Positions 6,919 through 45,410 of a stretch of 64,000 nt of DNA are shown here, piece after piece (the stretch's first letter is position 1; the number at the start of each line of letters is the position of its first letter). This DNA is from Corythoichthys intestinalis (lineage: Eukaryota). The stretch is from assembly GCF_030265065.1 (NCBI RefSeq), contig NC_080408.1, positions 22,919,480 to 22,983,479 on the forward strand, given 5' to 3'. The notes under the pieces were generated by a model, which did not search any database, was not told the DNA's origin, and worked only from the letters and a program-made list of their open reading frames with translations. The position numbers were made by a program, and so were the translations under genes.

Positions 6919-6975
6919 GGAAGCGGGATGGAGTCGTGCATGACAAAGCCTGAAGCCAAGAAGAAAACCAGACCT
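6919..6975 (+). CDS. Repeat-module gene exon 2 (start codon at 6928): MESCMTKPEAKKKTRP
   Basis: ttttttag|GG acceptor, ATG at 6928, cct|gtgag donor, phase 0. Confidence 0.45.
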
Positions 6976-7063
6976 GTGAGATGAGATGACACTGTAACAG
7001 ATAGGGAAATAACTATTATATTCCTCTCAATTATATTAGTAATTTTCTGTGTTGTTATTTCAG

Positions 7064-7090
7064 ACCAAACTGCCTCCGTGGCCTCCTGAG
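7064..7090 (+). CDS. Repeat-module gene exon 3: TKLPPWPPE
   Basis: tatttcag| acceptor, gag|gtacct donor, 27 nt, phase 0. Confidence 0.4.
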
Positions 7091-7158
7091 GTACCTAATC
7101 TGCCTGGCAACTGAGTGTCCAGTAATGTTGTTTTGTAATATGACAATTTTGCTTGCAG

Positions 7159-7227
7159 CCACAAAAAAACAATGCAGAATCATCAGACAAGCCTGTCCCC
7201 ATTCTGCCTCCACGACCACAGGACAAT
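7159..7227 (+). CDS. Repeat-module gene exon 4: PQKNNAESSDKPVPILPPRPQDN
   Basis: gcttgcag| acceptor, aat|gtacgt donor, 69 nt, phase 0. Confidence 0.45.
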
Positions 7228-7682
7228 GTACGTGCAAAGGAATATTTTTCTAACAAAAAAAAAGTTAAAATAGCGTGTAGAGGCCTTTGTTTTTTTTTTA
7301 AATGTCATACTAAAATTGTTTTAAGATGGATTTTACACGCAGTTAGGGCTGCAGCTATCAATTATTATTTAAGTAATCGATTAAGCTATCCATTAGTTAC
7401 TTCCTAATAATCAAGTAATTGGATTAGGAACATTTAATGCATTGCAGAATCAATTTCAGGAGATGTAAAACAAAGTGTTGCAGTTTCAAAAGGGCATTAC
7501 CATAAACGCAAATACAAAATAATATTCCTGAGTGTTTTTTCGAACTATGCAGAATGGTGCAAGCAACACGTCACTTTTGCCCGTTAAGATTTATGACGTT
7601 AGCAATTGTTGCTAGGCGTTTGTCCCTAACAGTAAATGAATGGAAATAGTGTACGAATGAGATGTTTACTGAGTTTAACCTA

Positions 7683-7842
7683 CCAACTTTGTCCGAAAAT
7701 GATGTCCCCGGTGCCAAATTCAATGGTAAAGATGTGGAAGAACATACAAATGTTCAGTTAAAGAGATGGCTTGAGTGTCGAGGGCTGAAAAAGACGGGGA
7801 AAAAAGCCGACCTGATCCAGAGTTAGCTTTTTTATCAACACC
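7683..7842 (+). other. Intronic ORF with SAP-like motif (…VQLKRWLECRGLKKTGKKADLIQR|gt), probably transposon-derived
   Basis: ATG-initiated frame MFTEFNLPTLSENDVPGAKFNGKDVEEHTNVQLKRWLECRGLKKTGKKADLIQR ending at a gt donor. The L-x2-L-x3-GL-x3-G-x-K-x2-L pattern resembles a SAP DNA-binding motif. Confidence 0.25.
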
Positions 7843-8285
7843 TTTTTCTTGTGTGCCTTGCCTTACGCCACTGACAATGACATTCTCATGTTTCAACAAT
7901 CTATCCTTTACCACCATATGCCCTGCTTTTCTCATATAGTATATCCTTTGGTTGTCTTACTCCTCAGAGCGTTCTGGGGGGCAATTTACATAGCAATTTT
8001 TGTGTAGCGATCGCAAATGCTACTCAGTGACAGCCAACGAACACTTTAAATTTTTTCATGAGTAACAAATATTAATTCTACAATTTCTTTACACTTCCCC
8101 CTTACTAAAGTTGTTCAGAAAAGGTAAAAGTGGCAGTCAGATACCATTTTAATTTCTTTCAGGTCAATCATTGTCAGACAGAAGCAGCGCAGCAAAACGC
8201 TACGCTAAAAAAATAAGTAAAAATATCAAAATGGCTTACCTCTTCGTCCTCGGTAGGACCATGGCTCCCAACAAAATGTTTACTG

Positions 8286-9274
8286 CATATGGCGGAAAAC
8301 ACTCAGGTGGCTTGACGTTCCGCTCTGAGACCCCCAATTTGGCCTAATTTCAAAATTGTCCGATATGCATTTGTGATACATCATTGGAAAGCTTAAAATC
8401 TCAATTTTATGGGGAAAGAAAAATTTTGAACAGGAGGGCTTTTTTTTTTTAAAAATGTTTTTTAAACAGCAAAACCCTACTTGGAGGTGTGAGCACAGAG
8501 AGCAGAATTATAGACGCCATGACTTTAACAAGATATTATCACGTACTCACCTTGTTTTGATCCAAAAACTCCATGTAACATATATAGCTGAGTGTCAAGA
8601 CACAGCTGTGAATGGCCACAGCTGGATTTTGGGGGGATTTTATGGGTGAAAAATGGTAATATAACAAGGTTCGCGATGCAGAAATAGCAGACATCAAGGA
8701 GTGGAGATGTTCTTTTTCATATATTTACCTTTTAAGCGTTTTTTTTTTTTTTCTCAATTTTTCTTCGCTTGGATCGATTATTTATCATCTAAAATATGGG
8801 AGAAAATTAGACACTAACAAAAAAATACAATTAAGCGATAGTTATGAGGTAGATATCAGTGACTTTTTTACAGACGCTATTTTTTTCATTGTGACCTCAT
8901 TTGTTTAAAATATGTGAGTGAATAATCTTTTAAAGTCGTTTTTTTTTTTTCAATACGAAATATCAGTCATCAATTAATGATTGTAAGCTAAAAATGACAG
9001 ACATCTTGAATAATAAATATAATACCTTCATTTTATGGCTGGGTTGAAATAAAAGTGGTTGTGCGACGTCTGTAAACGGGGGTTTCCAGGGTAAAACGGA
9101 CAAATTAAAAATAGTTTTGGGGCTTAATGCATCATGAATCTGCTATGGCAGCATATAGACATTGTTCTATCAAACACAACAGTTGTTTTGGCTTAAAATA
9201 GAGCAGTTTCTTTTCAAGAGGAGTGCAAGAGCAGAAACTGCTTTTTCAGTCTTGTCTGTGTTTTCCACCATATG
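8286..9274 (+). mobile_element. Non-autonomous ~1-kb element with 17-bp TIR CATATGGCGGAAAACAC, copy A
   Basis: catatggcggaaaacac...gtgttttccaccatatg termini. 85-90% identical full-length copy at 41317-42292. Confidence 0.6.
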
Positions 9275-9559
9275 AAATGTGAATGGCTTCACTTTGCTGC
9301 CGTTAAACTGGTCTTTTGGACATCTGGGCAAGTTGATCCATTCATCCATCACATTTTTTCCTCAGAGTTTTTGGTTTCGGGAAACGTATGAACAAAACAT
9401 CCTTCCTATGTCATAATGTCTGGAGTCGTTTCCACAAGTTCCATGGCAGCAGTGTTTGATCGGCTTGTTCTTTTTTGAAACATTACCAAAGAAAAAATAG
9501 CAGAAATAACATGGATTGTATGTGAGGGCGTGTCCATAATGTCCCACTTCCGCATTACG

Positions 9560-10100: not shown

Positions 10101-10259
10101 AAACTCAGAGTTAACTCTGACGTTAATAGCGTTTGCTTTCCGTACCTTTTTTTTCACGTAAGCTCTCATTAACTAATTGACTGTAACATGGTAATTGCCT
10201 GTCATCCCTGCATTTTGACAATTGATTGTCATATTTAAAGCACTGTCTTGTTCTTGCAG

Positions 10260-10310
10260 GAACCGAGCCAAACCCAATATCGTCTAAAAAGATCAGTGTT
10301 TGATAGCGAG
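10260..10310 (+). CDS. Repeat-module gene exon 5: EPSQTQYRLKRSVFDSE
   Basis: ttcttgcag| acceptor, gag|gtgaaa donor, 51 nt, phase 0. Confidence 0.4.
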
Positions 10311-10397
10311 GTGAAAACAATCAGTTATTATTATTTCCTCTGAAAATTCATTCAAACTATTGTCATTGTTATTAAAAAATGTACATTTATTTTTCAG

Positions 10398-10478
10398 GCC
10401 AAACAAAATGTGACGCAAAGCAAGACGAAGGAGAAAAATGCAGAACCTCCAGTGCCAGCACCTCGACGAGCTGAACAG
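10398..10478 (+). CDS. Repeat-module gene exon 6: AKQNVTQSKTKEKNAEPPVPAPRRAEQ
   Basis: tttttcag| acceptor, cag|gttcgg donor, 81 nt, phase 0. Confidence 0.45.
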
Positions 10479-10557
10479 GTTCGGTACTGGTACTTCCCGG
10501 TGACTTGGCTGCACAAAATCATGTTTGAGTTCATTTTTTTTCTCTTTCTAATGACAG

Positions 10558-10608
10558 GAGAAGAACCAGCCAACGAGACATAACCGGCACGAAGGCGAAG
10601 GCAAGAAG
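10558..10608 (+). CDS. Repeat-module gene exon 7: EKNQPTRHNRHEGEGKK
   Basis: atgacag| acceptor, aag|gtacgc donor, 51 nt, phase 0. Confidence 0.45.
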
Positions 10609-10669
10609 GTACGCCAGCTTGTGATGCCGTTCTTATTGTTGCTGTGCTAAACATGTGGTCATCTTCAAG

Positions 10670-10717: not shown

Positions 10718-10800
10718 GTTTGTTACTGGAGTCTTGGGTTCACATTTTTCTCATTTACTTATTTTTTTTGTAAAACACCATTCATACCCCTCGCGTGCAG

Positions 10801-10866
10801 ATGCGCCCGCCCGTTGTGATGACCAAGTCACAAAAAAGCCAGAAAAACAAACGGCCGTCATTCATC
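10801..10866 (+). CDS. Repeat-module gene exon 9: MRPPVVMTKSQKSQKNKRPSFI
   Basis: cgcgtgcag| acceptor, atc|gtaagc donor, 66 nt, phase 0. Confidence 0.4.
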
Positions 10867-11260: not shown

Positions 11261-11329
11261 AGTCATGTGACTAACATCGAGGCCGGAGGTGACGACGCTG
11301 CAGACAAACGGGCCATCGCTAGCAAACCT
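11261..11329 (+). CDS. Repeat-module gene exon 10: SHVTNIEAGGDDAADKRAIASKP
   Basis: tttgcttcag| acceptor, cct|gtacgt donor, 69 nt, phase 0. Confidence 0.45.
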
Positions 11330-11406: not shown

Positions 11407-11451
11407 AGGGCCCTGAAGGGCGTTATGAAGCACCTCAAGCCAACACCTAAG
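11407..11451 (+). CDS. Repeat-module gene exon 11 (divergent basic module): RALKGVMKHLKPTPK
   Basis: cttgacag| acceptor, aag|gtatgg donor, 45 nt, phase 0. Confidence 0.45.
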
Positions 11452-11519: not shown

Positions 11520-11636
11520 GGCGGCGGCGGGGGAGGAGAGGCACTCCCGGATCCCGACAAGGACGAGGGCGCTTCGGAAAAGGAACGAACCGCCGGCGAC
11601 AAAAGCAAACGAGATAAAAGTGGAGAACCCAAACAA
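11520..11636 (+). CDS. Repeat-module gene exon 12: GGGGGGEALPDPDKDEGASEKERTAGDKSKRDKSGEPKQ
   Basis: cttcctccaag| acceptor, caa|gtaaac donor, 117 nt, phase 0. Confidence 0.45.
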
Positions 11637-11684
11637 GTAAACCAACATCAAATGCATTTGTTCTTTTGATTTATTCATGTATAT

Positions 11685-13844: not shown

Positions 13845-14564
13845 CAGACATGTCCAAAGTCCGGCCCGGGGGCCAAATGCGGCCCGTGGTAAAATTTTAT
13901 CCTGCCCCCAGCCTCTGTCATAAAATCAATAACGTCTGGCACACAGACTTCATAAATTGGTCAGCAGTACTGCTACCAGCTTACACACTAAATGCTGCTC
14001 CTCAGTTACCCACTAAAAGTCGGCAGCACTCTCAGCAACATTACCCGGTGTGACCCTTTATTCCCAATATTCTAAGATGGCGACAATCAACAAAAAAAAA
14101 AAGAAAGTTGACTGCGACAGCCGACGCTTCAAGGATAGGTGGAAAATGGACTATTTCTTCACTAAAATACGCAACAACTGTGTCTGCTTCATTTGCAAAG
14201 AGACAGTCGGTGTTTTTAAAGAGTTCAATTTGAGGCGATATTACCAAACAAGACACGCTGACATGTACGAGATTACAGGGAAGATACGCAGCGAGAAATT
14301 GAAGCAACTTGAAGCTAGTTTAATTTTACAGCAGCAATATTTCACAAGAGCCCAAGAGTCGAAAGAGAACGCCACAAAGGTTAGTTGCGATATTGTTGAA
14401 ATTATTAATTTAAAAAAATAATAAAGCAAATGTGACACACAGAATGGCTTGCTAAAATTTGCCTAAATATATTGTTCTACGTAAAGGACGTTACCTAAGG
14501 TCGGCCCCCCACATTTTTACCACACCAAATCTGGCCCCTTATGCAAAAAGTTTGGACACCCCTG
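13845..14564 (+). mobile_element. hAT-like non-autonomous element carrying a transposase N-terminal (BED/Charlie-like) ORF fragment
   Basis: TIRs cagacatgtccaaagtccggccc... / ...ggccccttatgcaaaaagtttggacacccctg. Perfect 8-bp TSD TTCTAAAC (13837-13844 and 14565-14572). Internal ORF 14050-14421 with ...CDSRRFKDRWKMDYFFTKIRNNCVCFICKETVGVFKEFNLRRYYQTRHADMYE..., which has the pattern of domesticated hAT/Charlie N-termini. Confidence 0.7.
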
Positions 14565-14645: not shown

Positions 14646-14696
14646 GACTTTGGCGGTAGACTTGCCGAAATGTTCCGGAAACCTGCTGTGGTGACG
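14646..14696 (+). CDS. Repeat-module gene exon 13 (basic module variant): DFGGRLAEMFRKPAVVT
   Basis: cttttttcag| acceptor, acg|gtaaca donor, 51 nt, phase 0. Confidence 0.5.
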
Positions 14697-14786: not shown

Positions 14787-14912
14787 ATGGGAAAATCAGA
14801 CAGTGATTTGGAGGAGAATGAAGACGACCAGAAAACGTCAGAACGATCGAAAGCTGGAAAAAATTTAAACCGGAAGTTCAAGAAGAAAGCTGCTGAAGCT
14901 AAGTCGGACCAG
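14787..14912 (+). CDS. Repeat-module gene exon 14: MGKSDSDLEENEDDQKTSERSKAGKNLNRKFKKKAAEAKSDQ
   Basis: gttgtcag| acceptor directly before ATG, cag|gtcaaa donor, 126 nt, phase 0. Could also serve as an alternative start exon. Confidence 0.45.
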
Positions 14913-15022: not shown

Positions 15023-15070
15023 GAGCTGTCGGACAGTGGCGACGATCTGTCTGCGAAGCCCTCCTCAGAG
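15023..15070 (+). CDS. Repeat-module gene exon 15 (acidic linker): ELSDSGDDLSAKPSSE
   Basis: catcttccag| acceptor, gag|gtcaat donor, 48 nt, phase 0. Confidence 0.5.
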
Positions 15071-15149: not shown

Positions 15150-15221
15150 GAAAAAGGAGGATTTTTCAGCGGCATCCTCCGCAAACCTCCCAAGATTCGT
15201 AAAGAGGCGTCACCCGAGCAG
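15150..15221 (+). CDS. Repeat-module gene exon 16 (basic module): EKGGFFSGILRKPPKIRKEASPEQ
   Basis: actttgcag| acceptor, cag|gtaaaa donor, 72 nt, phase 0. Confidence 0.6.
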
Positions 15222-15286: not shown

Positions 15287-15346
15287 GATTCCGACGAGCT
15301 TCCCAGCGACCTTTCCGGCAATGAGGACAACCAGTTGGACAAAAAG
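15287..15346 (+). CDS. Repeat-module gene exon 17 (acidic linker): DSDELPSDLSGNEDNQLDKK
   Basis: tttttttcctggtag| acceptor, aag|gtcagg donor, 60 nt, phase 0. Confidence 0.55.
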
Positions 15347-20205: not shown

Positions 20206-20262
20206 GAGAAAGGTGGTTTGTTTAGCGGATTACTCAAGAAGACGCCCAAAGCTGGCGCTGAG
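20206..20262 (+). CDS. Repeat-module gene exon 18 (basic module): EKGGLFSGLLKKTPKAGAE
   Basis: tgtttatccag| acceptor, gag|gtacaa donor, 57 nt, phase 0. Confidence 0.6.
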
Positions 20263-21206: not shown

Positions 21207-21275
21207 GAGAACTTGAGCGCGCAAAAAGAGTTGTCAGCGAGCAACGACAGTCTGTCCGATGTCACGAAAACTAAA
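21207..21275 (+). CDS. Repeat-module gene exon 19 (acidic linker): ENLSAQKELSASNDSLSDVTKTK
   Basis: tttgatttcag| acceptor, aaa|gtgagt donor, 69 nt, phase 0. Confidence 0.55.
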
Positions 21276-24454: not shown

Positions 24455-24526
24455 GAGAAGGGAAGCGCATTCAGTGGAATGTTCAAGAAGTCACCCAAAA
24501 CAAGCGACGCATCCAACACAGAAGAA
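24455..24526 (+). CDS. Repeat-module gene exon 20 (basic module): EKGSAFSGMFKKSPKTSDASNTEE
   Basis: ctgtttcag| acceptor, gaa|gtaaga donor, 72 nt, phase 0. Confidence 0.6.
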
Positions 24527-25848: not shown

Positions 25849-25917
25849 GTGAGCAAACAGCCACAAGACGACGAGCGGTCAGTGGGCAGCGACGGACCTT
25901 CGGAGGAAAATTACAAG
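25849..25917 (+). CDS. Repeat-module gene exon 21: VSKQPQDDERSVGSDGPSEENYK
   Basis: ttttgtccag| acceptor, aag|gtgact donor, 69 nt, phase 0. Confidence 0.45.
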
Positions 25918-25989: not shown

Positions 25990-26052
25990 GAAAAGGGAGG
26001 AATATTTGGTGGATTCTTCAAGAAAGCTGCTAAAGCGCTTCAGCCTGAACAA
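25990..26052 (+). CDS. Repeat-module gene exon 22 (basic module): EKGGIFGGFFKKAAKALQPEQ
   Basis: ctgttttag| acceptor, caa|gtaaat donor, 63 nt, phase 0. Confidence 0.6.
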
Positions 26053-27421: not shown

Positions 27422-27481
27422 GATGAGAACTTGGATAAGAAGTTGTCAGCCAGCAGTGAGAATTTATCTGAGGGAAAAGCG
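27422..27481 (+). CDS. Repeat-module gene exon 23 (acidic linker): DENLDKKLSASSENLSEGKA
   Basis: ctttttttgcag| acceptor, gcg|gtacat donor, 60 nt, phase 0. Confidence 0.55.
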
Positions 27482-27583: not shown

Positions 27584-27652
27584 GAGAAAGAGCGAGGGCT
27601 GTTTGGTGTTTTCTTGAAGAAGACTCCCAAAGGAGAGCGGGCTGATTCATCA
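27584..27652 (+). CDS. Repeat-module gene exon 24 (basic module): EKERGLFGVFLKKTPKGERADSS
   Basis: tgtttgggatcag| acceptor, tca|gtgagt donor, 69 nt, phase 0. Confidence 0.6.
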
Positions 27653-27956: not shown

Positions 27957-29741
27957 AGGCCTGAACGATATTGGAAAAAACTATTGCTGCGATTTTTTTG
28001 GGGTTTGCGATATATTGCGATATTATATTGCGATATTAAAAAAATATTAGGGTAATTAATTTTTTAAATTAATCACGTTAAAATATTTGACGCAATTAAC
28101 GCACGTCCCGCTCAGACAGTATTCTGCCTTTTGGTATGTTTTACAGCAAGGTTTTTTGTGCTGTCTAACAGCGAACTCTTGTGGTCGCTTTGCGACATGG
28201 TTTATTGCTTTCTTGCCAGTTCAATATGGCTGCACGACGTCTCGGGCTGACGCCTACGTTGTAATGTTGTGCTTATATGATCCTTGGACAAGATTTGTCC
28301 GTAAGTATGGTTGTTGTAAAGAATGTACATATTATGTTAGTAAGCGAAATGTTATATTTTTTGTATGAGACGCTTTTTGTTTATGTTTAGTGAACCTGTA
28401 TAGCGTGCTAAGCTAATGTTGTTGCTAATGCAATGCTTGTGTACTTTTTTTGTGTAGTTTTACTACGGTCTAAAGAGGACAATGTTTTGAGGCCATTTTA
28501 TTAATAAATCAGATGAAAAAGGAAGAAGTCTGATGATTAAGGCGTCGTTCACTAGCTGTCTAGCTTTGGAAAAAGTAGACGCTTCGGAGTGAGGACAGCA
28601 TAGACAGATTTAAATGACAGTAGAGTGAAATGCCCACTACAGTCCTTATGTACCGTATGTTGAATGTATATATCCATCTTGTGTCTTATCTTTCCATTCC
28701 AACAATTTATTTTACAGAATATATATATAATTTACAGAAAAATATGGCATATTTTATAGATGGTTTGAATTGCGATTAATTGCGATTAATTACGATTAAT
28801 TAATTTTTAAGCTGTAATTAACTCGATTAAAAAATTTTATCGTTTGACAGCCCTAAAAAATATATATATATATATTTTAAAAGACATTTTTACTAGATGA
28901 CTTGAATGGCTCTTTGGAAAGACTTTGGATGACTCATCATGACCACAGTGTACAGTATTCCATCGTTTTTCGCGGTTAATAGGGACCAGAACCCGCCGCG
29001 ATAAGTGAAAAACCGCGAAGTAGCCCCCCCCCCCATTTTTGTTGTGTGTGTGTGTGCTCAATGTATTTATTCAGATCTAGCACTGGAAAGAGATACATAT
29101 AAGACATGTTTTTTCTTCACTTTTTCCCCCCAAAGTATGATTTAAAAAAAAAAAAATATATATATATATATATATATTTTTTTTTTTACTAATAAATGCT
29201 TTTTAAGCACTTTAAATGTAATAATTATGATCAGTTTTAAACATGACTGTCCTACTGAATCATTTTTAAACAAGAATAAAGTACTGTAGTAGAAAAATGC
29301 TTGGCTTTATTAAATGCTTTTGTTTACCTAACATGGCTGTGACTCTTAGAGTGACATGTTGAAATTACAAACTCCTCATAATCACTTCTGGCGTTTATTT
29401 TATATGTCTCGAACGTCTCCACATTCTCCCCCCACAGACACACACATTCATTCCAGCCAGCGCTCCTTTGCAGAAACTGTTTAACAAGTTAAACAGTTTG
29501 ATTGACAGATTGCTGCCAGGCTTCTTTGACCAGATCAAAGCCATCGTTAACTTTAATAAGCAAGTGCTGCAGTGACTGAGAGCTGGGAAAGGGGGTGAGA
29601 GAGGCTGTGCGAGCGAATGAAGCAGATCAAGCGATGGGGATCAGAAAAAAAAACAAAAAAACTATCGCACGTCCTTGCGATGGGACTATCGCGCATGCGC
29701 ACATCGCGATGGCGATGTTTAAACGATATATCGTTCAGGCT
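27957..29741 (+). mobile_element. Nested element with TIR AGGCCTGAACGATAT / ATATCGTTCAGGCT and ~10-bp TSD (TACTCTGGAG). It carries the hAT MITE 28048-28855 and other fragments.
   Basis: Termini and flanking duplication (27946-27955 and 29742-29751) seen directly. 9-10-bp TSD is compatible with a Mutator-like element, but superfamily unproven. Confidence 0.5.
28048..28855 (-). mobile_element. hAT-type MITE family 1 copy (with a small 5' internal deletion)
   Basis: tagggtaattaatt...cgtttgacagcccta, perfect 8-bp TSD AAAAATAT (28040-28047 and 28856-28863). Confidence 0.75.
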
Positions 29742-30217
29742 TACTCTGGAGCAACTTATGTGTGAAATTATTAACACATTATAATATTTCACATGTTATT
29801 TTGGTGTTTCAGAGTGACACTGATGATTTAGTAAACTTGTTAGCAGGTTCTTTATGCCATAGTTATCTGAATAACTCTTAATAGCTATGTTACCGGCCAC
29901 GTTCGCATTTCATTGTTCATGCATCATGTAACATTATCAAACTGTACACTTATTCAGCATGTTGTTCTCTATTGCATTTTTATTTTAAATTGCCTTTCAA
30001 GATGACATATCTGTTCTATGTGTTGGATTTTATCAAGTAAATTTCCCCCAAAAATGCGACTTATACTCTGGTGCGACTTATATGTTTTTTTTTTTTCTTC
30101 ATTGCACATTTTTGGGCTGGTGTGACTTTTACTCAGGTGCGACTTATAGTCCGAAAAATATGGTAGGTAGTTGATATATATAATATAGGTAGTTGATATA
30201 TATACTGTATATATATA

Positions 30218-30590
30218 TTAGGGCTGTCAAACGATTAAAATTTTTAATCGAGTTAATTACAGCTTAAAAATTAATTAATCGTAATTAATCGCAATTAATC
30301 GCAATTCAAACCATCTATAAAATATGCCATATTTTTCTGTAAATTATTGTTGGAATGGAAAGATAAGACAAGATGGATATATACATTCAACATACGGTAC
30401 ATAAGGACTGTATTTGTTTATTATAACAATAAATCAACAAGATGGCATTAACATTATTAACATTCTGTTAAAGTGATCCATGGATAAAGTGTTATATTAA
30501 AACGCCTCTTAATGTTTTCGTTTTAATGAAATTTGTAAAATTTTCAATCAAAAAATAAACTAGTAGCCCTATTCTGTCCTCAATGTGTGT
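30218..30590 (+). mobile_element. hAT MITE family 1, truncated copy
   Basis: attagggctgtcaaacgattaaaatttttaatcgagttaattacagc... continuing ~370 bp, then diverges. Confidence 0.55.
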
Positions 30591-30989
30591 GAGTACACAA
30601 ATTGACAGATAGCGAACATAAGTTCCAAAAAGAAATCAGACGGTGTGGCAAAGTTGCATGGGCTTTACTGAAGTCATCTCTTTTTGACAGGAGCACGTTT
30701 CTTGTATTTTTGTAAAACTTAAAATAACAAGGCAATGTGTCAATAACTTGCATAAATCACAAAATAACATAAAATGTACACACACGTGTCCATTTGAGCA
30801 GTAGCACTAGCCAATTAGCTCGCAAGCATCTAACAATGTAACTGCATTTCACCATATATGTGAACAAATTCAAATACACATCATCAATAACTATCTAATG
30901 CTCATGAATATAAACAAAGGAGGAATATAACTCACAAGCGATGCATGTATTAGACACAAACAGTGTGATGGGGCTATGAGAACTGCCAC

Positions 30990-31742
30990 TGAATACTGGA
31001 TGCGGACGTTAGCTGGTCTGAATAGCACTGTCTATTAGTGTGAGTTCACGTCGACATATAATCACGTCAGAAAAGCGCGCCGAAACCCAAATAATCCGCT
31101 GCACTGAATCGCCAGCAGAGGGCGACATTACGCCACATAACATATGCAAGTCACACCCAAGCGCCAGCAGAGGGCGGAAAAACTCCATAAAACACAATTA
31201 ACAAGTTGGCCTTTCACTGTACTGACATTTAAATCTGTCTGAGCGGGCATAGTTTTGGAGCTTTTTGGAGTTTTGTTGCCCTCTGCTGGCACTTGGGTGC
31301 GACTGATTTTATGGGCTTAAGCACCCATGAGCATTGTGTAATTATTGACGTCAACAATGGGGGGCTACTAGTTTATTTTGTGATTGAAAATGTTACAAAT
31401 TTTATTAAAACGAAAACATTAAGAGGGGTTTTAATATAAAATTTCTATAACTTGTACTAACATTTATCTTTTAAGAACTACAAGTCTTTCTATCCATGGA
31501 TCGCTTTAACAGAATGTTAATAATGTTAATGCCATCTTGTTGATTTATTGTTATAATAAACAAATACAGTATTTATGTACCGTATGTTGAATGTATATAT
31601 CCATCTTGTGTCTTATCTTTCCATTCCAACAATAATTTACAGAAATATATGGCATATTTTATAGATGGTTTAAATTGGGATTAATTACGATTAATTAATT
31701 TCTAAACTGTAATTAACTAAAAATTTTAATCGTTTGACAGCC

Positions 31743-31745
<3 letters not shown>
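30990..31745. mobile_element. Rearranged hAT MITE family 1 copy with inverted duplication at its 5' side, followed by (TA)n
   Basis: ccagcagagggcg... at 31100-31190 is the reverse complement of ccctctgctggc... at 31260-31290. catttaaatctgtctgagcggg is inverted relative to family consensus. Right end cgtttgacagcccta at 31745, then (TA)n. Confidence 0.5.
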
Positions 31746-31780
<35 letters not shown>

Positions 31781-32289
31781 TAAAATATCAGTGGACTATT
31801 TGTGTTGTATTAGTTGTTTTTAAAATTGGCTTATTCCAACCTTTCATGGGTTATTAGCTGTATCTTTGAATAATTGTAATTGGAAAAAAAATGAAGGGAT
31901 TTTACATTTTTTTGTTGTTGTTTTTTTTAAATTCAATTATTAGTGTTTTTGGATTTTGGGATTCATTTTAATGCTACTTAATACTAATATTTATTAATAA
32001 CTTTTTAAATTAATTTAAATATATTTTATTTAATCTGTTGTACATTTGTGCATGTTTTTATCCAATTACCAGTTTGATTACATATCAATATGATTAAAAT
32101 CTTAAATAAATAATAAATGGAATTGTGGGTAGCTTTGCATGCAATACTTTTACTTTTGGAATTATTTTGACAAAAAATTTGCAGTCTCAGTTAATGCCAA
32201 ACACTGCCAAAGACATCAATGTCAAAGATGGCCACCTACGTCAATGCACTGTACAATAAGTGTGTTTTCTTAAACGACAAATACGTGGA

Positions 32290-32901: not shown

Positions 32902-32952
32902 GACAAAAACATTTTCAGCAACATGTTCAAGAAGCCTACAGAGGGCGACAAG
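32902..32952 (+). CDS. Repeat-module gene exon 26 (basic module, truncated): DKNIFSNMFKKPTEGDK
   Basis: tccccctgcag| acceptor, aag|gtgcct donor, 51 nt, phase 0. Confidence 0.55.
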
Positions 32953-33115: not shown

Positions 33116-33184
33116 GATGGGGAAGCAAAAAGTGAAGCAGCGGCATTCGGGAGTTCGGAGAATTTGTCCGAAAACGTCCCTAAG
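33116..33184 (+). CDS. Repeat-module gene exon 27 (acidic linker): DGEAKSEAAAFGSSENLSENVPK
   Basis: ttgattgttcag| acceptor, aag|gtatta donor, 69 nt, phase 0. Confidence 0.55.
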
Positions 33185-33257: not shown

Positions 33258-33323
33258 GGCAAAAAAGGAGGTCTGGCCGGCATCTTCAAAAGATCTTACA
33301 GTAACGACAACGAGGTGGATGAG
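33258..33323 (+). CDS. Repeat-module gene exon 28 (basic module variant): GKKGGLAGIFKRSYSNDNEVDE
   Basis: tacttttag| acceptor, gag|gtcagt donor, 66 nt, phase 0. Confidence 0.55.
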
Positions 33324-33402: not shown

Positions 33403-33474
33403 GAGAAAGGTGGACTCTTCAGCGGCCTGAAGAAAACCACAACGAAAGCATCTGCAGATGACGAAGCTACAGGG
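33403..33474 (+). CDS. Repeat-module gene exon 29 (basic module): EKGGLFSGLKKTTTKASADDEATG
   Basis: ttttccatatag| acceptor, ggg|gtgaga donor, 72 nt, phase 0. Confidence 0.6.
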
Positions 33475-33562: not shown

Positions 33563-33610
33563 GACAAGGAGAAGTCCTCGAGTAACGACAATCTGTCGGA
33601 AAAGCCCAAG
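33563..33610 (+). CDS. Repeat-module gene exon 30 (acidic linker): DKEKSSSNDNLSEKPK
   Basis: tgtaatcacag| acceptor, aag|gtaagg donor, 48 nt, phase 0. Confidence 0.55.
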
Positions 33611-36913: not shown

Positions 36914-36982
36914 GAAAAAAGCATTTTCAGTGGAATGTTCAAGAAAGCACCGAAAGCAGCAGATGAGGCCGCAGTTGATGAG
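36914..36982 (+). CDS. Repeat-module gene exon 31 (basic module): EKSIFSGMFKKAPKAADEAAVDE
   Basis: cttttccctcaag| acceptor, gag|gtaggt donor, 69 nt, phase 0. Confidence 0.6.
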
Positions 36983-37093
36983 GTAGGTGACCGACTACCC
37001 AAGAGAGAATTTTTTAAAAATCAAATTATTATTAGTAGTATTAGTAGTGGTAGCATCCATGCCGTTTCACTGTAATTATTTTTTTCTGAGCAG

Positions 37094-37168
37094 GAGTCCA
37101 ACAGCGGACAGGACAAGAACTTATTATCTGCAAGCAATGAAAACCTGACCGAAGAAAACGCTCCAAAA
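37094..37168 (+). CDS. Repeat-module gene exon 32 (acidic linker): ESNSGQDKNLLSASNENLTEENAPK
   Basis: tttttctgagcag| acceptor, aaa|gtacaa donor, 75 nt, phase 0. Confidence 0.55.
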
Positions 37169-37237: not shown

Positions 37238-37309
37238 GAAAAGACTGGAGGTCTGGCAGGAATGTTCAAAAAGTCACCCAAACCGGCGCCACGCTCCGTC
37301 GTCAACAAG
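37238..37309 (+). CDS. Repeat-module gene exon 33 (basic module): EKTGGLAGMFKKSPKPAPRSVVNK
   Basis: ttttgttaccag| acceptor, aag|gtgact donor, 72 nt, phase 0. Confidence 0.6.
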
Positions 37310-37402: not shown

Positions 37403-37441
37403 GATCCTCTCAGTGATGCCAAGGATGCAGAAAGTGACAAG
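37403..37441 (+). CDS. Repeat-module gene exon 34: DPLSDAKDAESDK
   Basis: ctttgtttttag| acceptor, aag|gtaaat donor, 39 nt, phase 0. Confidence 0.45.
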
Positions 37442-37663: not shown

Positions 37664-37726
37664 GACGACTTGTCAGGTGACGAACTATCAGGTGATGCTG
37701 TCATTCTTGAAGCTGCCACTGCAAAA
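37664..37726 (+). CDS. Repeat-module gene exon 35: DDLSGDELSGDAVILEAATAK
   Basis: ttttttccctaag| acceptor, aaa|gtgagt donor, 63 nt, phase 0. Confidence 0.5.
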
Positions 37727-37857: not shown

Positions 37858-37917
37858 GAGAAAAAGGGAGGCTTCGCCGGAATGTTCAAGAGGACGCCCA
37901 AAACCGCTGACAAACAG
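37858..37917 (+). CDS. Repeat-module gene exon 36 (basic module): EKKGGFAGMFKRTPKTADKQ
   Basis: catgttgagcag| acceptor, cag|gttagg donor, 60 nt, phase 0. Confidence 0.6.
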
Positions 37918-38866: not shown

Positions 38867-40249
38867 TACAGTGCCCTCCCGTAATTATTGGATTTATAAT
38901 AATTATGAGTTTTTTAGCTTCTAATAATTTTTTTTTCTAAATAATATGGGATCTTAATGGAAAAAAGAGAAAAATCCAACCTTCAATACAAGTGCATTTA
39001 TTCAGTGGGGAAAAAAATCCCACATAAAGAAATAATTATTTGACATCAAATAATGTGTATCACAATTATTAGCACCCCTGGTGTTAATACTTTGTACAAC
39101 CCCCTTGTCCCAACAAAACAGCACCTAATCTTCTCCTATATTGTCTTGCTGAAAGACCCAGTGACGACCCATCTTCATCTTTCGGGCAGAGGGCAACAGA
39201 TTTTGATTTAAAATGTCCTGGTATTTCAAAGCATTCATGATGCCATGCACCCTAACAAGGTTCCCAGGGCCTTTGGAAGTGAAACAGCCCCACAGCATCA
39301 CTGACCCACCCCCATACTTCACAGTGGGTATGAGGTGCTTTTCAGCATGCGCATCTTTCGTGGCACGCCAGACCCACTTAGAGTGTTTGTTGCCAAAAAG
39401 CTCAATCTTGGTCTCATCTGACCAAAGCACACGGTCCCAGTTGAAGCCCCAATACCGCTTGGCGATTTCCAGACGTTCGCGTTTATGATTGTGAGTGAGG
39501 AAAGGTTTTCTCCGTGCATGCCTCCCAAACAGCTTGTTGGCGTGTAGACAGCACCTCATACCCACTGGGAAGTATGGGGGTGGGTCAGTGATGCTGTGGG
39601 GCTGTTTCGCTTCCAAAGGCCCTTGTTAGGGTGCATGGCATCATGAATGCTTTGAAATACCAGGACATTTTAAATCAAAATCTGTTGCCCTCTGCCCGAA
39701 AGCTGAAGATGGGTCGTCACTGGGTCTTTCAGCAAGACAATGACCCTAAACATATGGCCAAATCTACACAGAAATGGTTCACCAGACACAAAATCAAGCT
39801 CCTCCCATGGCCATCTCAGTTCCCAAACCTCAACCCCATTGAAAACCTGTGGGGTGAGGGAAGAGGAGAGTACAGAGAGAGGACCCAGGTCTCTGGATGA
39901 TTTAGAGATATTCTGCAAAGAGGAATGGCTGAAGATCCCTCTTTCTGTCTTTTCCCATCTTGTGAAACATTATAGGAGAAGATTAGGTGCTGTTTTGTTG
40001 GCAAAAGGGGGTAGTACAAAGTATTAACACCAGGGGTGCTAATAATTGTGACACACATTATTTGATGTCAAATAATTATTTCTTTATGTGGGATTTTTTT
40101 CCCTACTGAATAAATGCACTTGTATTGAAGGTTGGATTTTTCTCTTTTTCTCCATTAAGGTCCCATATTATTTAGAACAAGAAAAAAAAATAGTAGAAGC
40201 TAAAAAACACATAATTATTATAAATCCAATAATTATGGAGGGCACTGTA
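38867..40249 (+). mobile_element. Tc1-like DNA transposon (TIR TACAGTGCCCTCC…ATAATTATTGG), internally palindromic and non-functional
   Basis: ~190-bp TIRs at both ends ending cactgta. Interior holds two head-to-head transposase C-terminal fragments, - strand 39125-39616 and + strand 39631-39900 ([49 protein letters not shown]...). 39061-39337 is the reverse complement of 39553-39830. No intact ORF. Confidence 0.75.
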
Positions 40250-40858: not shown

Positions 40859-40942
40859 GACAAGGACGACGACAAGGATGACATGGCGCCACCTAAGGGC
40901 GGAGGGCTGAGACGCAGGAAGACCATCAAAAAGAAAAGACGA
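40859..40942 (+). CDS. Repeat-module gene exon 37 (acidic then polybasic): DKDDDKDDMAPPKGGGLRRRKTIKKKRR
   Basis: atacttccag| acceptor, cga|gtcagc donor, 84 nt, phase 0. Confidence 0.5.
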
Positions 40943-41014
40943 GTCAGCACTTTGTTTTGTTAATTACCGATCTGCATAATGTCTGAGTGTCATTTAACTT
41001 TGATCCTTCTCCAG

Positions 41015-41071
41015 ATCGTGTCCTTCAGAATCAAGACGACTCTTCCCAAAATGCCAAAGCTAAACGCGCAG
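41015..41071 (+). CDS. Repeat-module gene exon 38: IVSFRIKTTLPKMPKLNAQ (with the preceding exon gives KKKRRIVSFRI, an RVxF-like motif)
   Basis: ccttctccag| acceptor, cag|gtaaac donor, 57 nt, phase 0. Confidence 0.5.
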
Positions 41072-41316
41072 GTAAACCTCGAGCAAGTTCCACTTAGCCA
41101 CATGCAATTTACTTAGACTTAGCTTGTCTATCAAAAGTAGATCCACAAAAAAAACAAAAAAAAAAAAATCTCAAGTAGCCGTCTTGAAAAAGTTTAGAAG
41201 TCTGTTTCCTCAAGTCTTTCAAAAATGAGCTCAAATTATTACGTCAGTTGGGTAATTTAAAATAACTGATGTCCACATACAGTATGTGGATGCCATGTCT
41301 CAATTATATATATACA

Positions 41317-42292
41317 GTATATGGCAGAAAACACTCAGGTGACTTGACGTTCCTCTCTGAAACCCCCAATTTGGCCAAATTTCAAAATTGTCCCGTATGC
41401 ATGTGAGATACATCTTTGGAAAGCTTAAAATATCAATTCTCTGGGGAAAGAAAATTTTTGAACAGGAGGGCATTAAAAAAAAAAATAATTAAAACCTAAC
41501 TCGAGGTGAGAGCATGAGAGAGCATAATTAAAGACCATGATTATAACGAGATATTATTGCGTACTTACCTTGTTTCGATCAAAAAAACTCTGTGTAGCAT
41601 GTATCACCGAGTGCTAAGACACTGCTGTGAATAGCCACAGCCAGACTTTTTGGGTATTTTGTGGGTGAAACGCGGTAATATAACAAGGGTCGGAATGCAG
41701 AAATCGCAGACATCAAGGAATGGTTAAGATTTTCTTTTTCAAATATTTACAGTTTTAAATGTTTTTTTTTTTCCTTGTTTGGATCGATTATCATCTAAAA
41801 TATCAGGGGAAATGCAATAGTAACAGTACAATTAAGCAATAGTTATGAGGTAGATATCCGTGACTTTTTTAGAGATGCCATTTTTTCATTGGGACATAAT
41901 TTGTTTAAAAGTTTAAAATATGTGAGTAAATAATTTTATAAAGTTTTTTTTTGTTTTTTGTTTTTAAACTAAATATTAGACATCAATTAATGATTCTAAG
42001 CTAAAAACGATAGTCATTTCAAATAATGAATATAATTACTTACCTTCTTTTTATGGCTAGGTTGAAACAAAAGCGTTTGCGCGGTTTCTGTAAACGGGGT
42101 CTCCAGGGTAAAACGGGCAAATTAAAAATAGTTCAGGGGCTTAATGCGCCATGAAACTGCTATGGCAGCATATCGACATATTGTTCTATCAAACACAGCA
42201 GTTCTTTTGGCTTAAAATACAGCAGTTTATTTTAAAGAGGGGTGCAAGAGCAGAAACTGCTTTTTCAGCCTTGTCTGTGTTTTCCGCTATAT
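41317..42292 (+). mobile_element. Non-autonomous ~1-kb element with CATATGGCGGAAAACAC-type TIR, copy B
   Basis: tatatggcagaaaacactcaggtgacttgacg...cagccttgtctgtgttttccgctatat. Collinear with 8286-9274 over the full length. Confidence 0.6.
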
Positions 42293-43003
42293 ATATATAT
42301 AAAATTATTATGAATCGTTATTTATATATGTATTATGACTAAATAAAATTATAAACTAATAAAATGTTAATAAAAACAAAAAATGAATCGAAACAAAAAT
42401 ATACCCTGGTTATGACACCCAACAACACTTAAGTCGATAAATTATGAATCCTATTATTCAATGACATTTTTTTTAAATTCCCTTTTTTGTTTTTAATAAA
42501 CAATTAAAATAAATAGAAATTTTAAATGAGTAAAGAGAATAATTTTATTTTTTTATTAGTTATTTTAAAATTAAAAAATAGAATTGAGAGTAGGGTTTTA
42601 TTCCCCACTTTTTCTTTAAATAAATATAAAAATAAAACTAAGTTTAATCGTTTTCAAAATAACAAAATAAGAGAATATTTACTATTAACTCACTGCCCGC
42701 CATTGACAACAATAGACATCCAATTTATTTGAACTGGAAGGACTGACTGTAAATGCTTACCTTAATTGTGATTAACGGCGCTAGACGTCCAATTTATTTT
42801 GATTGGGTGGGGCAAATGAATGAATGTTAATTCGCCCCCTCCCAGTTAAAATAAATTGGCCGTCTAGTGCCGTCGATGGCAGCCAACATTGCTCTATAAG
42901 GGTTTGAAGACAGACTTCTATAGATTTTGTCTGATTTCTATCAAATTTGAGCAATAAAAAGTACAATTCTTGAGTGATACTTGATCCCTTTTTGCTCGCC
43001 CAG

Positions 43004-43066
43004 GCCCGAGAAAAGATGCCCCTCATTGAAGAGAGTGTGGAGATGCAGGAGATAACCCCGCCACAG
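43004..43066 (+). CDS. Repeat-module gene exon 39: AREKMPLIEESVEMQEITPPQ
   Basis: ttttgctcgcccag| acceptor, cag|gtatgt donor, 63 nt, phase 0. Confidence 0.5.
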
Positions 43067-43197
43067 GTATGTTTTTCTTAATCCTCATCAATCCTTCCAT
43101 CTTGCTAAAGTTAGGTTTCATACGATGTAGGTTAGGAGGGTGTGTGATGTTTCCAAGCTCAGTGATGTTATCACTTTCATGTTGTGATTTGTTTCAG

Positions 43198-43272
43198 GAG
43201 AGCACTGTGGAGATCCTGCCGGTTGAGATGGCAGCATACCCATCCAGTGGAAACCCCCTGGAATCAGAGGAG
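43198..43272 (+). CDS. Repeat-module gene exon 40: ESTVEILPVEMAAYPSSGNPLESEE
   Basis: gtgatttgtttcag| acceptor, gag|gtgtgt donor, 75 nt, phase 0. Confidence 0.5.
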
Positions 43273-43539
43273 GTGTGTGTCCATATGCAATATCATATCA
43301 TAAGTAGAGGTCGACTTGTATGGGACAAAGGTTGATGTCGATTAAAAAAAAAAAAAAAATCAGCCGAATGCCGATGTATAAAGTAAAAATTTCGTAAGCA
43401 AATATTTGAGTCCGATAGACTTTTATAAAGCACATTGATTATGAAAGACAATTGAAGCACTCGTTATATAAATGTATATATTGGAAGTATTTTTTTTCTT
43501 CTGTTGCTTGCTTTTGTAATACTGGCCTCTAGGTGGTGC

Positions 43540-43860
43540 AAAATCACAATTAACAAGGATCATCATTAAAACAGTGAATATAAGTTATCCTATAATATCG
43601 GCTTATATTGGCCGATCTTCAAAAAGTCCATATAACTGCCTGTTATATCAACTGGCCAATATATCTGGCAACCTTCATTAGAAAGATCATCACCCAAACA
43701 GTGGATATCAGTTATCTTATTATATTGGCTGATATCGACCGATCTCCTACAAAGACCATATACCGGCCCGATATATCGGTCGACTTAATAGGAAAAATCA
43801 TCACCATAACAGTGAACAAAGTTATCCTATTATATTTGCCGATCTTGAAAAAGTCCATGT
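43540..43860. repeat. Tandem repeat, ~95-bp unit x ~3.3
   Basis: Reiterated atcatcacc.aaacagtg.ata..agttatcctattatat.ggc.gatct.caaaaagtccatata.c blocks. Confidence 0.7.
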
Positions 43861-44269
43861 AGCTTTCTTTCTTTTCGTTCATATATCTTTCGAAACTCTA
43901 GTTTGAAAAAAGACTTTTTGAACACCAAATTAATTTTTATACCGAAAATAATTACAGTACATCCGAAACAAAAGATTATAACAATATATTTGAGAGAAAA
44001 GTATGTTATTTTGCCTCATTCAAATCATAATATCTGAACATTTAAATATGTAAACTTAAGTGCAATCACATTCGTAAATGAATGGCTTCTGGTTTTTGAA
44101 ATGTAAATAAACCAATCTATTGTGATAAAACAACAAAATTGCTATAACTGCATTAACCATCAAAGTGAAGTCTAACTGTAACTGTAGTCTTGAAACAAAT
44201 CTGAATAAGGAAAAACATTGCAATAAAATAATGCAAACTGGTTAAACTTGAGAGTAGCTGAGATCTGTC

Positions 44270-44400
44270 ATGACAGAACATCGCTTCAGTGATATCTGGC
44301 AACATCTAGCGGAGTGAATGGGAGAGTAGCTGAGATCTGTCATGACAGAACATCACTTCAATGATATCTGGCGCCATCTAGCGTCGTGAATGGGTATAAT
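44270..44400. repeat. Tandem duplication, ~58-bp unit x2 (gagagtagctgagatctgtcatgacagaacatc.cttcaatgatatctggc..catctagcg..gtgaatgg)
   Basis: Two near-identical adjacent units seen directly. Confidence 0.7.
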
Positions 44401-45128
44401 GTCTAGACCGCAAATATAAGACAACCTCCTCTTTTTCAGTCTTATTTCAATGCAAAAAACACCGTCTCATATTCGGGCCAATACGGTAATACGGCAGATA
44501 TCCAGTGGTACCTCTAGATACGAAAAATTTATTTTACGAAGTTTTTTTTTTTTTGCTTCATTTTAAGAAAATTTATTCATCATACAAAAGATAACACATA
44601 CTATGTTATAGATAATTCCTGCTCGCAGCAATGTAATATTTTAACTACGTTAGACTGTAAATGTAAACGAAATATACATACCACAATGTGCTACACAATG
44701 CTCATGTACAGTATCTGAAACACAAGAAGAATATAACTTATAACTTTAGCAAGGCACATTCAGCGAGATGAAATGCCAAGCAATGGCTGCCGAAGTTGGC
44801 TTGTCTTTTAGTATTTGCCGAAGTTAGCTTGTCTTTTAGCTCTCTCTATTTGCTACGAGCTCAAGTAGTCATGTAAAAACATCTGTAGAATGAGCTGGAA
44901 CGTAACAAACTAGTTACACTTAAACGCCACTAGGGGCGAAAAAGCATCACAAATAAAGACTGTGGTGTTCTGAGCTTGGAAAAAATTGGACGATTGACAT
45001 CGCGAAAAAAATCCTGATATGAAAGCCACTCCGGAACAAATTAATTTTGTATCTTGAAGGTACCACTGTATTGGTTGACCTTTAATCATAAGGTCAAAGA
45101 TGAGTGTCATGTATTTTTTTCCTTGAAG

Positions 45129-45168
45129 GAAAATGACGGCCTATTGGAATGGTGGAATAATGTCGAAG
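45129..45168 (+). CDS. Repeat-module gene exon 41: ENDGLLEWWNNVE (ends in phase 1)
   Basis: tttttttccttgaag| acceptor, gaag|gtgagt donor, 40 nt. Confidence 0.5.
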
Positions 45169-45257
45169 GTGAGTGTAATGTCTAGACATTTTAATTTTTT
45201 TTTTGTTTCCTCATGCAAATGTCTGATGTGGTTGGTCTTCACGTCCTGTTTCTGTAG

Positions 45258-45410
45258 GCTGGGCTGAATGGAACGAGACAGCCAATTTTCAAGAAGATGA
45301 GGAGGGAATGTACGCGCATGCTTTATTTATTTTCTTTGTTATGGATTGTGACATCTTGATAAATAAATGCTTGCTTGTAAGAAGGAAAGATGAATGGATG
45401 AGTGATAGCT
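45258..45410 (+). CDS. Repeat-module gene candidate terminal exon: (G)WAEWNETANFQEDEEGM... Reading ends at TGA ~45408-45410, but an AATAAA lies at 45362 inside this frame, so the true coding end or a further splice (possible donor AAT|gtacgc at 45315/45316) is unresolved.
   Basis: tgtttctgtag| acceptor. Phase-1 continuation gives GWAEWNETANFQEDEEGM, then low-complexity AT-rich codons. aataaa at 45362-45367. Confidence 0.35.

Follow-up and report, generated by a model that had tools for sequence, protein, structure and literature searches.

The window analysed here is a stretch of 64,000 nucleotides (nt) from the fish Corythoichthys intestinalis (NCBI RefSeq assembly GCF_030265065.1, contig NC_080408.1, positions 22,919,480 to 22,983,479 of the forward strand), and all coordinates are counted from its first letter. 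One gene was found on the plus strand at 6928-48297. The model, which was built from splice sites, has 40 coding exons in a single stop-free reading frame that begins with an ATG at 6928 and ends with a stop codon at 48295-48297. Its coding length is 4464 nt, or 1487 amino acids (aa), with the exon-11 donor placed at 14696. The many small exons encode a hydrophilic region with repeated modules, the last exon encodes an ApoL domain, and the gene is probably an apold1a orthologue of the APOL family.

Exons 1-37, which lie between 6928 and 43272, are all phase 0-0, 27-126 nt long and bounded by AG and GT. Together they encode a hydrophilic stretch of about 800 aa without a stop. The original prediction, made from the letters of this DNA, had described about 41 tiny phase-0 exons that read as one continuous hydrophilic polypeptide of about 800 aa. 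The polypeptide was recovered, as were the symmetric AG/GT exons of 27-126 nt, but the count came to 37 symmetric exons plus two that are not symmetric. A crude scan of splice sites and composition found 28 hydrophilic phase-0 AG..GT segments on the same strand in the interval 6919-45410, and among them basic exons of the type EKGGxFSGMFKKxPK took turns, for the most part, with acidic ones of the type xLSxSxxNLSE. To gauge chance, the scan was repeated on the region from 6.9 to 43.3 kilobases (kb), where it gave 25 distinct candidates on the plus strand, compared to 3 on the minus strand and 0.65 on average in shuffled sequences (n=20), in agreement with the claim that the exon array goes beyond chance. 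The 12 basic peptides singled out as repeats were all located on the plus strand, at 14646-37902, and each of their exons has a polypyrimidine tract and an AG directly before its start and a GT at its end. With a loosened regular expression for the module, matches fell in annotated exons only, on the plus strand.

No terminal exon or in-frame stop lies inside the small-exon chain. The chain continues into two small non-symmetric exons, 45129-45168 (phase 0 to 1) and 45258-45309 (phase 1 to 2), and the second is spliced at 45309 to an exon of 1966 nt at 46332-48297, with splice phases that agree throughout (0 to 1, 1 to 2, 2 to stop). The earlier view of a self-contained 39-kb gene ending at 45410 was not upheld, since the stop there is a read-through of the exon-39 donor. 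The open reading frame (ORF) at 46267-48297 matched the Pfam ApoL family (PF05461) with 113.9 bits and an expect value (E) of 1.3e-32 against a cut-off of 25.9, covering profile positions 46-297 of 298. Exons 38-40 encode a helical linker (LLEWWNNVEGWAEWNE), the C-terminal ApoL domain and a charged tail. Two Stigmatopora proteins (P0015/P0018) run from the last modules directly into the ApoL domain, via GGGLRRRKTIKKKKRVVSFRIKTT...ENDGLLEWWKNVESWADWNE, and tblastn placed the segments of this path at 40859-43272, 45129-45168, 45258-45309 and 46332 onward.

A draft concatenation of the exons was searched against 5.8 billion proteins and gave 102 matches (E <= 1e-3), all from teleosts, with a best E of 1e-146. 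The matches were only teleost APOL-family proteins or their fragments, with names that include 'apolipoprotein L1 isoform X..', 'Apolipoprotein L, 1', apold1a and si:rp71-1g18.13. Most of these homologues of the disordered part are about 1000 aa long and carry a C-terminal Pfam ApoL domain (PF05461). When the ApoL region was searched exhaustively with HMMER against 1.84 billion cluster representatives, the best match was XP_054624444.1 (P0219), a RefSeq protein of 1467 aa from the pipefish Dunckerocampus dactyliophorus with its ApoL domain at 833-1139. This protein and the gene model align over their whole length, Met1 through the final ...DDGLYI, with 57% identity, and 93% in the ApoL region, and the gaps in this alignment are whole modules. 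The highest identities were to Stigmatopora, Dunckerocampus and Syngnathoides, as fits a syngnathid genome, and no identical protein was present in the searched databases. Joined full-length proteins were found in more than 10 species, for example in Dunckerocampus, Stigmatopora, Oryzias, Perca, Dissostichus and Parambassis. In the search with the C-terminal region, the best 120 matches were all from teleosts; apold1a/si:rp71-1g18.13 proteins came top at 70-93% identity, compared to 63-72% for the apold1b type and about 45% for the apol1 type. The closest gar protein was 50% identical and had no modules, and the nearest relatives in gar are either short or module-free. The original prediction had found no family assignable with confidence, and this did not hold, given the ApoL match and the apold1a orthologues.

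The exons were also found to be collinear with a locus in Syngnathoides biaculeatus (L001, from CM034216.1; the orthologous gene lies at 10001-25002 of L001). The gene order there is an apol1-type ApoL gene, a disordered 'gene', an ApoL 'gene' 235 base pairs (bp) further on and a RhoGAP gene on the opposite strand. When the window was compared with this locus, 85% of bases aligned in exons and 4% in introns, and at the edges of orthologous exons the AG/GT splice dinucleotides were mostly kept. For exons 1-37, 720 aligned codons gave a nonsynonymous rate (dN) of 0.154, a synonymous rate (dS) of 0.679 and a dN/dS of 0.23. Conservation of the frame, on which the original prediction had staked itself, was thus borne out. 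The part of the gene that encodes the disordered region spans about 31 kb in the window versus 11.7 kb in Syngnathoides.

Residues 1 to about 800 contain 15% K, 10% E and 10% S, with a charged fraction of 0.37 and a net charge of about zero. Their Uversky hydropathy is 0.363, below the boundary of 0.417. AlphaFold2 was run on the Oryzias javanicus orthologue P0019, using a 47-sequence alignment, in place of the spliced window model. In residues 1-710 of this orthologue no helix or strand was predicted (predicted local distance difference test score, pLDDT, 33-51); predicted helices begin at the LMEWW segment and continue through the ApoL domain. The N-terminal half is therefore intrinsically disordered by composition and by the orthologue's model, as had been claimed for this modular protein, and no helix is predicted in the modules. 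The disordered part matched no Pfam family at E <= 1, MARCKS being among those without a match, and PF26369, which is listed for P0012, was not reproduced by the Pfam scan of the disordered part.

The module has the consensus KEKGGxFSGMFKKSPK, taken from 469 distinct units across teleosts, and an example of this basic-aromatic sequence is EKGGLFSGMFKKSPK. The 12 basic modules mostly alternate with acidic Ser-rich spacers of the consensus (E)LSASSDSLSE, and each module exon has a net charge of +1 to +5. The modules have a mean helical hydrophobic moment of 0.38, compared to 0.26 for the background, and 20% of the region's background windows exceed the module value. The 12 peptides predicted earlier were all found and the module is conserved, but a reading of them as amphipathic helices fared less well, with a moment in the top 20% or so and no helix predicted. 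The module exons are alike in their coding part only, and because of this the duplications that produced them are judged to be old. Matches to the module regular expression number 0-14 per homologue, with 12 in the window gene and about 2-3 degenerate ones in zebrafish. A likeness of the module to WH2 (LKKT) and to nucleoporin GLFG repeats was considered and dropped, as spacing and context were unsupportive. A PP1-regulator reading was given no weight, since the RVxF-like 'RIVSF' and the polybasic RRRKTIKKKRR are not conserved in the zebrafish orthologue or in apold1b.

All 40 exons lie on the plus strand, and the first ten precede the module array. Exon 1 (6928-6975, its start probably at the acceptor 6919) encodes MESCMTKPEAKKKTRP, with Cys4 and then a polybasic stretch; the peptide is 80% identical to the N-terminus of Syngnathoides P0001, and its MES/ACM...KKK pattern is kept in orthologues. 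The conserved N-terminus in the orthologue comparison consists of this MES/ACM start and polybasic stretch, followed by two PxxPxR-type proline motifs. Exon 2 (7064-7090, 27 nt, phase 0-0) encodes TKLPPWPPE, and its equivalent is skipped in Parambassis isoform X4. PILPPRP, which fits the PxxPxR pattern of SH3 ligands, is found in exon 3 (7159-7227, 69 nt), EPSQTQYRLKR... in exon 4 (10260-10310, 51 nt) and PPVPAPRR, the second PxxPxR-like motif, in exon 5 (10398-10478, 81 nt). Exon 6 (10558-10608, 51 nt, EKNQPTRHNRHEGEGKK) is the least certain exon, with a weak match to P0001, and no counterpart was found for it in the Syngnathoides locus. Exon 7 (10801-10866, 66 nt) is basic and encodes MRPPVVMTKSQKSQKNKRPSFI; its equivalent is skipped in Parambassis isoform X7. 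Exon 8 (11261-11329, 69 nt) is followed by exon 9 (11407-11451, 45 nt, RALKGVMKHLKPTPK), whose equivalent is skipped in Parambassis isoforms X5-X7, and by the mixed-charge exon 10 (11520-11636, 117 nt), whose acceptor at 11520 was picked by frame and is less certain. The Parambassis RefSeq isoforms X1-X7 differ by whole segments that correspond to window exons 2, 7 and 9. Symmetric phase-0 exons allow whole cassettes to be skipped in this way. For zebrafish si:rp71-1g18.13, 16 isoforms are predicted.

The array begins with exon 11 (14646-14696, 51 nt), which encodes the first basic module, DFGGRLAEMFRKPAVVT. Its donor at 14696 was chosen over the one at 14690, both being phase 0, because the orthologues read ...KPPVVT with V directly after the junction. 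Exon 12 (14787-14912, 126 nt) is the largest of the small exons and is acidic, then basic. The acidic Ser-rich exon 13 (15023-15070, 48 nt, ELSDSGDDLSAKPSSE) is followed by a basic module in exon 14 (15150-15221, 72 nt, EKGGFFSGILRKPPK...) and the acidic exon 15 (15287-15346, 60 nt). Basic modules are next encoded by exon 16 (20206-20262, 57 nt, EKGGLFSGLLKKTPK..., 91% nt identity to Syngnathoides), exon 18 (24455-24526, 72 nt, EKGSAFSGMFKKSPK...), exon 20 (25990-26052, 63 nt, EKGGIFGGFFKKAAK...) and exon 22 (27584-27652, 69 nt, EKERGLFGVFLKKTPK...). Acidic exons lie between them: exon 17 (21207-21275, 69 nt, ...ELSASNDSLSD...), exon 19 (25849-25917, 69 nt) and exon 21 (27422-27481, 60 nt, ...KLSASSENLSEGKA).

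Exon 23 (32902-32952, 51 nt) encodes the basic module DKNIFSNMFKKPTEGDK with 97% nt identity to Syngnathoides, and exon 24 (33116-33184, 69 nt, ...FGSSENLSENVPK) is acidic. Two basic modules follow in direct succession, in exon 25 (33258-33323, 66 nt, GKKGGLAGIFKRSYS...) and exon 26 (33403-33474, 72 nt, EKGGLFSGLKKTTTK...). The latter has no intact counterpart in the Syngnathoides locus and is present in Dunckerocampus and Dissostichus. After the acidic exon 27 (33563-33610, 48 nt, DKEKSSSNDNLSEKPK) come the basic module of exon 28 (36914-36982, 69 nt, EKSIFSGMFKKAPK...), the acidic exon 29 (37091-37168, 78 nt, ...LLSASNENLTEENAPK, with alternative acceptors at 37094 and 37097) and the basic module of exon 30 (37238-37309, 72 nt, EKTGGLAGMFKKSPKPAPRS...). 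Exons 31 (37403-37441, 39 nt) and 32 (37664-37726, 63 nt, DDLSGDELSGD...) are both acidic, and the last basic module, EKKGGFAGMFKRTPK..., is encoded by exon 33 (37858-37917, 60 nt).

Beyond the array, exon 34 (40859-40942, 84 nt) encodes an acidic run and then the polybasic GGGLRRRKTIKKKRR; a polybasic segment, RRRKTIKKKRR-xVSFR, is conserved after the array. It is followed by exon 35 (41015-41071, 57 nt, IVSFRIKTTLPKMPKLNAQ), exon 36 (43004-43066, 63 nt, AREKMPLIEESVEMQEITPPQ) and the final phase 0-0 exon, exon 37 (43198-43272, 75 nt, ESTVEILPVEMAAYPSSGNPLESEE). The folded helical part begins in exon 38 (45129-45168, 40 nt, phase 0 to 1, ENDGLLEWWNNVE), where a helix is predicted in the orthologue, and continues in exon 39 (45258-45309, 52 nt, phase 1 to 2, GWAEWNETANFQEDEEG), which has 90% nt identity to Syngnathoides. 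Exon 40 (46332-48297, 1966 nt, phase 2 to stop) encodes the ApoL domain, an acidic coiled segment and the charged tail.

Within the ApoL domain, a glycine-rich hydrophobic hairpin, GGGVASVAGSLTTITGLILAPFTFGASIIVTAVGIGVATAGSITSA, is nearly invariant across homologues. In the AlphaFold2 model of P0019, the helices that flank the hairpin have a pLDDT of 70-87, and the hairpin itself (residues 801-855) is of low confidence, with a pLDDT below 50. The domain is followed by the acidic coiled segment and then by a K/E/R/S-rich tail of about 390 aa that ends in ...SSILMDDGLYI. A tandem repeat of 21/63 nt lies at 48103-48221 within the coding sequence of this tail ('RERRESDRE...'). The tail is expanding by short tandem duplication, and its length varies between syngnathids. 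A search of PDB sequences with the ApoL region (46332-47250) gave two weak matches only (E 0.002), both over the hairpin region. They are components of ClyA-family alpha-pore-forming toxins, Bacillus NheL1 (6tao) and Vibrio MakE (6w08), and the likeness could reflect chance or a distant pore-toxin-like fold.

We put the probability at roughly 0.85 that the small exons and the ApoL exon form one protein-coding gene and that it is the orthologue of teleost apold1a/zebrafish si:rp71-1g18.13 (LOC560271), a member of the APOL/APOLD1 family. Several points weigh against this reading. The chaining of exons in C. intestinalis rests on homology, frame and splice signals, and confidence is lower for exon 6 and for the acceptors chosen in exons 10 and 29. 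The disordered part is modelled as a separate protein in Syngnathoides (P0001), Anableps (P0002) and Hippocampus (P0003/P0004), and there may be an isoform that lacks the ApoL domain. Lastly, the one-to-one orthology assumed with tetrapod APOLD1 derives from the names given in databases.

The architecture of the window gene is the same throughout as that of the teleost apold1a/si:rp71-1g18.13 group, including Dunckerocampus XP_054624444.1. Shared features up to the array are the MES/ACM-polybasic start, the proline motifs and the module array itself, and those after it are the RRRKTIKKKRR-VSFR linker, the LEWW helix, the ApoL domain and the charged tail. Module copy number, in contrast, differs widely, and introns are much larger in the window. 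Zebrafish si:rp71-1g18.13 (NP_001025308.2, 669 aa) is 70% identical in the ApoL region and has only 2-3 degenerate modules. The group is known from computed gene models only. Mammalian APOLD1 (VERGE) and APOL1-6 share the ApoL domain, the glycine-rich hydrophobic hairpin and the flanking helices. These mammalian proteins are 250-450 aa long, and APOL1 has a signal peptide. Unlike them, the window protein has a disordered N-terminal array of 800 aa, a charged tail of 390 aa and an MESC... start, and the APOL literature consulted (PMC11726835, PMC8557400) does not mention a long N-terminal extension of mammalian APOLD1 or APOL1-6. In the APOL family, which has been implicated in membrane insertion as well as fusion and fission, the ApoL hairpin is described as the element that inserts into membranes and remodels them (PMC11726835). 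An APOLD1-like gene has been proposed as the ancestor of the family (PMC8557400), and APOLD1 is active at endothelial junctions and Weibel-Palade bodies according to the literature. No paper that names the gene or describes its repeat architecture was found in a literature search.

From these features we infer the following function for the array. The ApoL hairpin would be embedded in a membrane and anchor the protein, and the N-terminal Cys4 with its polybasic stretch could be a palmitoylation site and a membrane anchor. The cytosolic tail would then act as a multivalent, electrostatically switchable tether, in which the 12 basic-aromatic 'stickers' may bind acidic lipid surfaces reversibly, much as the MARCKS effector domain and other unstructured basic-hydrophobic segments do. 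A trafficking partner could be a further target of the stickers, or the target in place of lipid. The binding could be tuned by phosphorylating the acidic Ser-rich spacers, and by analogy to MARCKS a phosphorylation-tunable electrostatic membrane switch is plausible. Exon skipping, gain or loss would alter the number of stickers, and this number can change without breaking the frame because every module is a phase-0 cassette. Reversible lipid binding by the Lys/Phe stickers is the version we favour. Against it stand the short length and Gly-rich composition of the modules, in which the helical hydrophobic moment is modest and no helix is predicted, and the NPF and DxF motifs in the equivalent region of the paralogues, which point to protein partners rather than lipids.

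It is possible, though in our estimate doubtful, that the modules are instead short linear motifs for proteins and that the tail is a multivalent adaptor for endocytic, trafficking or cytoskeletal machinery at the membrane patch where the ApoL hairpin sits. Candidate partners would be EH-domain, AP-2/clathrin or SH3 proteins. Motifs of the NPF and DxF types are classical ligands of EH domains, AP-2 or clathrin, and the paralogues of the window gene carry them at the equivalent position, as the tails of endocytic adaptors do. In apold1b (P0127, P0194, P0152, P0159), 4-5 copies of NPGMFKGMIQKVNPFKSS precede the ApoL domain, and this sequence resembles the window module yet contains NPF, the classical ligand of EH domains. 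The percomorph apol1-type paralogues, of about 1000 aa, combine GGMFSGMFKK modules with NPF segments, and in si:cabz01007807.1 (P0300, P0326, P0318) the ApoL domain is preceded by dozens of motifs of the types KPDIFQA, D[IL]F, DLF, DPF or NPF. The N-terminal PxxPxR motifs are conserved, and the region is predicted to be fully disordered, which is typical of motif arrays; the tails of epsin, Eps15 and AP180 are likewise long disordered regions with many copies of short hydrophobic motifs. However, the modules of the window gene have lost NPF, with FKKSPK in place of KVNPFK, and GGxFSGMFKK matches no known ligand motif. The folded part also differs from that of the endocytic adaptors, being an ApoL domain and not an ENTH, ANTH or EH domain. 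Binding of lipids and binding of partners are compatible and not mutually exclusive.

A gene for a disordered protein of about 800 aa that stands apart from a downstream ApoL gene is very improbable. Such a division was suggested by the annotation of Syngnathoides, which splits the orthologue into a 729-aa model without ApoL, 'nucleolar protein dao-5-like', and a 711-aa ApoL model 235 bp later. Models of the disordered part only exist in several other species as well, and they carry misleading names: titin homolog, starmaker-like and dentin sialophosphoprotein-like. However, the end of Syngnathoides P0001 (...KEVRVRFI) is a read-through of the exon-33 donor into the intron, and exons 34-40 are collinear directly downstream of P0001 in Syngnathoides DNA. 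The small-exon chain, moreover, lacks a terminal exon or in-frame stop of its own, and the joined full-length models of Dunckerocampus, Stigmatopora, Oryzias, Perca, Dissostichus, Parambassis and others run through into the ApoL domain.

Hardly any credence can be given to the idea that the gene belongs, or is related, to the MARCKS or BCAS1 families, which the original prediction had rightly treated as a resemblance only. The likeness is one of composition: the MARCKS effector domain and BCAS1 likewise have short Lys/Phe-rich segments in an acidic, disordered, Ser-rich protein. In contrast to MARCKS, the window protein has 12 weakly basic modules and not one strongly basic segment, starts with MESC without the glycine for N-myristoylation, and joins its array to a C-terminal ApoL domain. 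The Pfam scan of the disordered part and the protein search, which returned teleost APOL-family proteins or fragments only, also speak against such a relationship; neither BCAS1 nor MARCKS proteins were among the 102 matches of that search, which requires shared 5-residue words. That the exon-like segments are chance or decayed pseudo-exons in transposon-rich DNA, as the AT-rich, repeat-rich context might suggest, is practically untenable given the strand bias of the candidates over the minus strand and the shuffles, the uninterrupted 4.46-kb frame, the dN/dS of 0.23, the exon-confined conservation and the match of E = 1e-146 to orthologues.

The preferred reading, an apold1a orthologue with a hairpin and a tunable tail, can be extended to the family, but only tentatively. 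Teleost APOL/APOLD1 proteins might be membrane hairpins that carry arrays of short motifs, with a valency tuned by splicing. The ancestral role of the hairpin might then have been in vesicle trafficking or membrane remodelling under control of the tail, and this control might have been lost in the short mammalian APOLs. On this extension, KEKGGxFSGMFKKSPK may be an undescribed membrane- or partner-binding motif, with NPF/DxF variants in the paralogues.

The discovery is modest, in that an apparent orphan gene is now placed in the APOL family. Databases already contain predicted orthologues from dozens of fish, and this is a known gene, uncharacterised, with an undescribed repeat architecture. 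Its gene models are often split, and several fish annotations present its disordered part and its ApoL part as two genes. The module array is under purifying selection and offers a tractable handle on the intracellular role of the APOL/APOLD1 hairpin proteins. Protein searches found at least four groups of ApoL-domain paralogues with long motif-array tails in teleosts, including a probable zebrafish neighbour of apol1 with 16 predicted isoforms, whereas papers on zebrafish APOL1 models state that zebrafish has a single ApoL gene (PMC4854397, PMC4492502), an assumption made in the APOL1 nephropathy work (PMC4854397).

One of these paralogues is the neighbour of the window gene. An ApoL ORF at 740-1708 on the plus strand (Pfam E 6e-36, 89% identity to Syngnathoides P0063) is the last exon of a tandem apol1-type paralogue, the remainder of which lies upstream of the window. 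Zebrafish apol1 (NP_001025309.1), the gene of the APOL1 nephropathy model, is the counterpart of this neighbouring gene and not of the 40-exon gene. Because the accession numbers of zebrafish apol1 (NP_001025309.1) and si:rp71-1g18.13 (NP_001025308.2) are adjacent, the same tandem pair is probably present in zebrafish. On the other side of the gene, a 780-aa ORF at 52452-54794 on the minus strand has about 7 copies of a 57-aa (171-nt) repeat, 'VTPSLRDTPLKEVRSD...EEQGPE(K/R)CE', and a second acidic ORF lies at 58939-59523 on the same strand. Neither ORF had a Pfam match. Both are probably large exons of a RhoGAP gene, since the corresponding position in Syngnathoides is taken up by a minus-strand RhoGAP gene of 1358 aa.

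The DNA transposons that had been predicted in the introns are supported by long pairs of terminal inverted repeats and transposase remnants. Intron 33 contains nested long inverted repeats at 38879-40238 around a Tc1-type transposase helix-turn-helix remnant (39125-39616), and one pair, 38962-39144 and 39967-40149, is 183 nt long and 97% complementary. A nest of inverted repeats of 39-140 nt occupies 28602-31787 in intron 22, and a Spin-doc zinc-finger ORF lies at 14050-14421 in intron 10. Downstream of the gene, a DDE_3 transposase fragment was found at 60861-61211.

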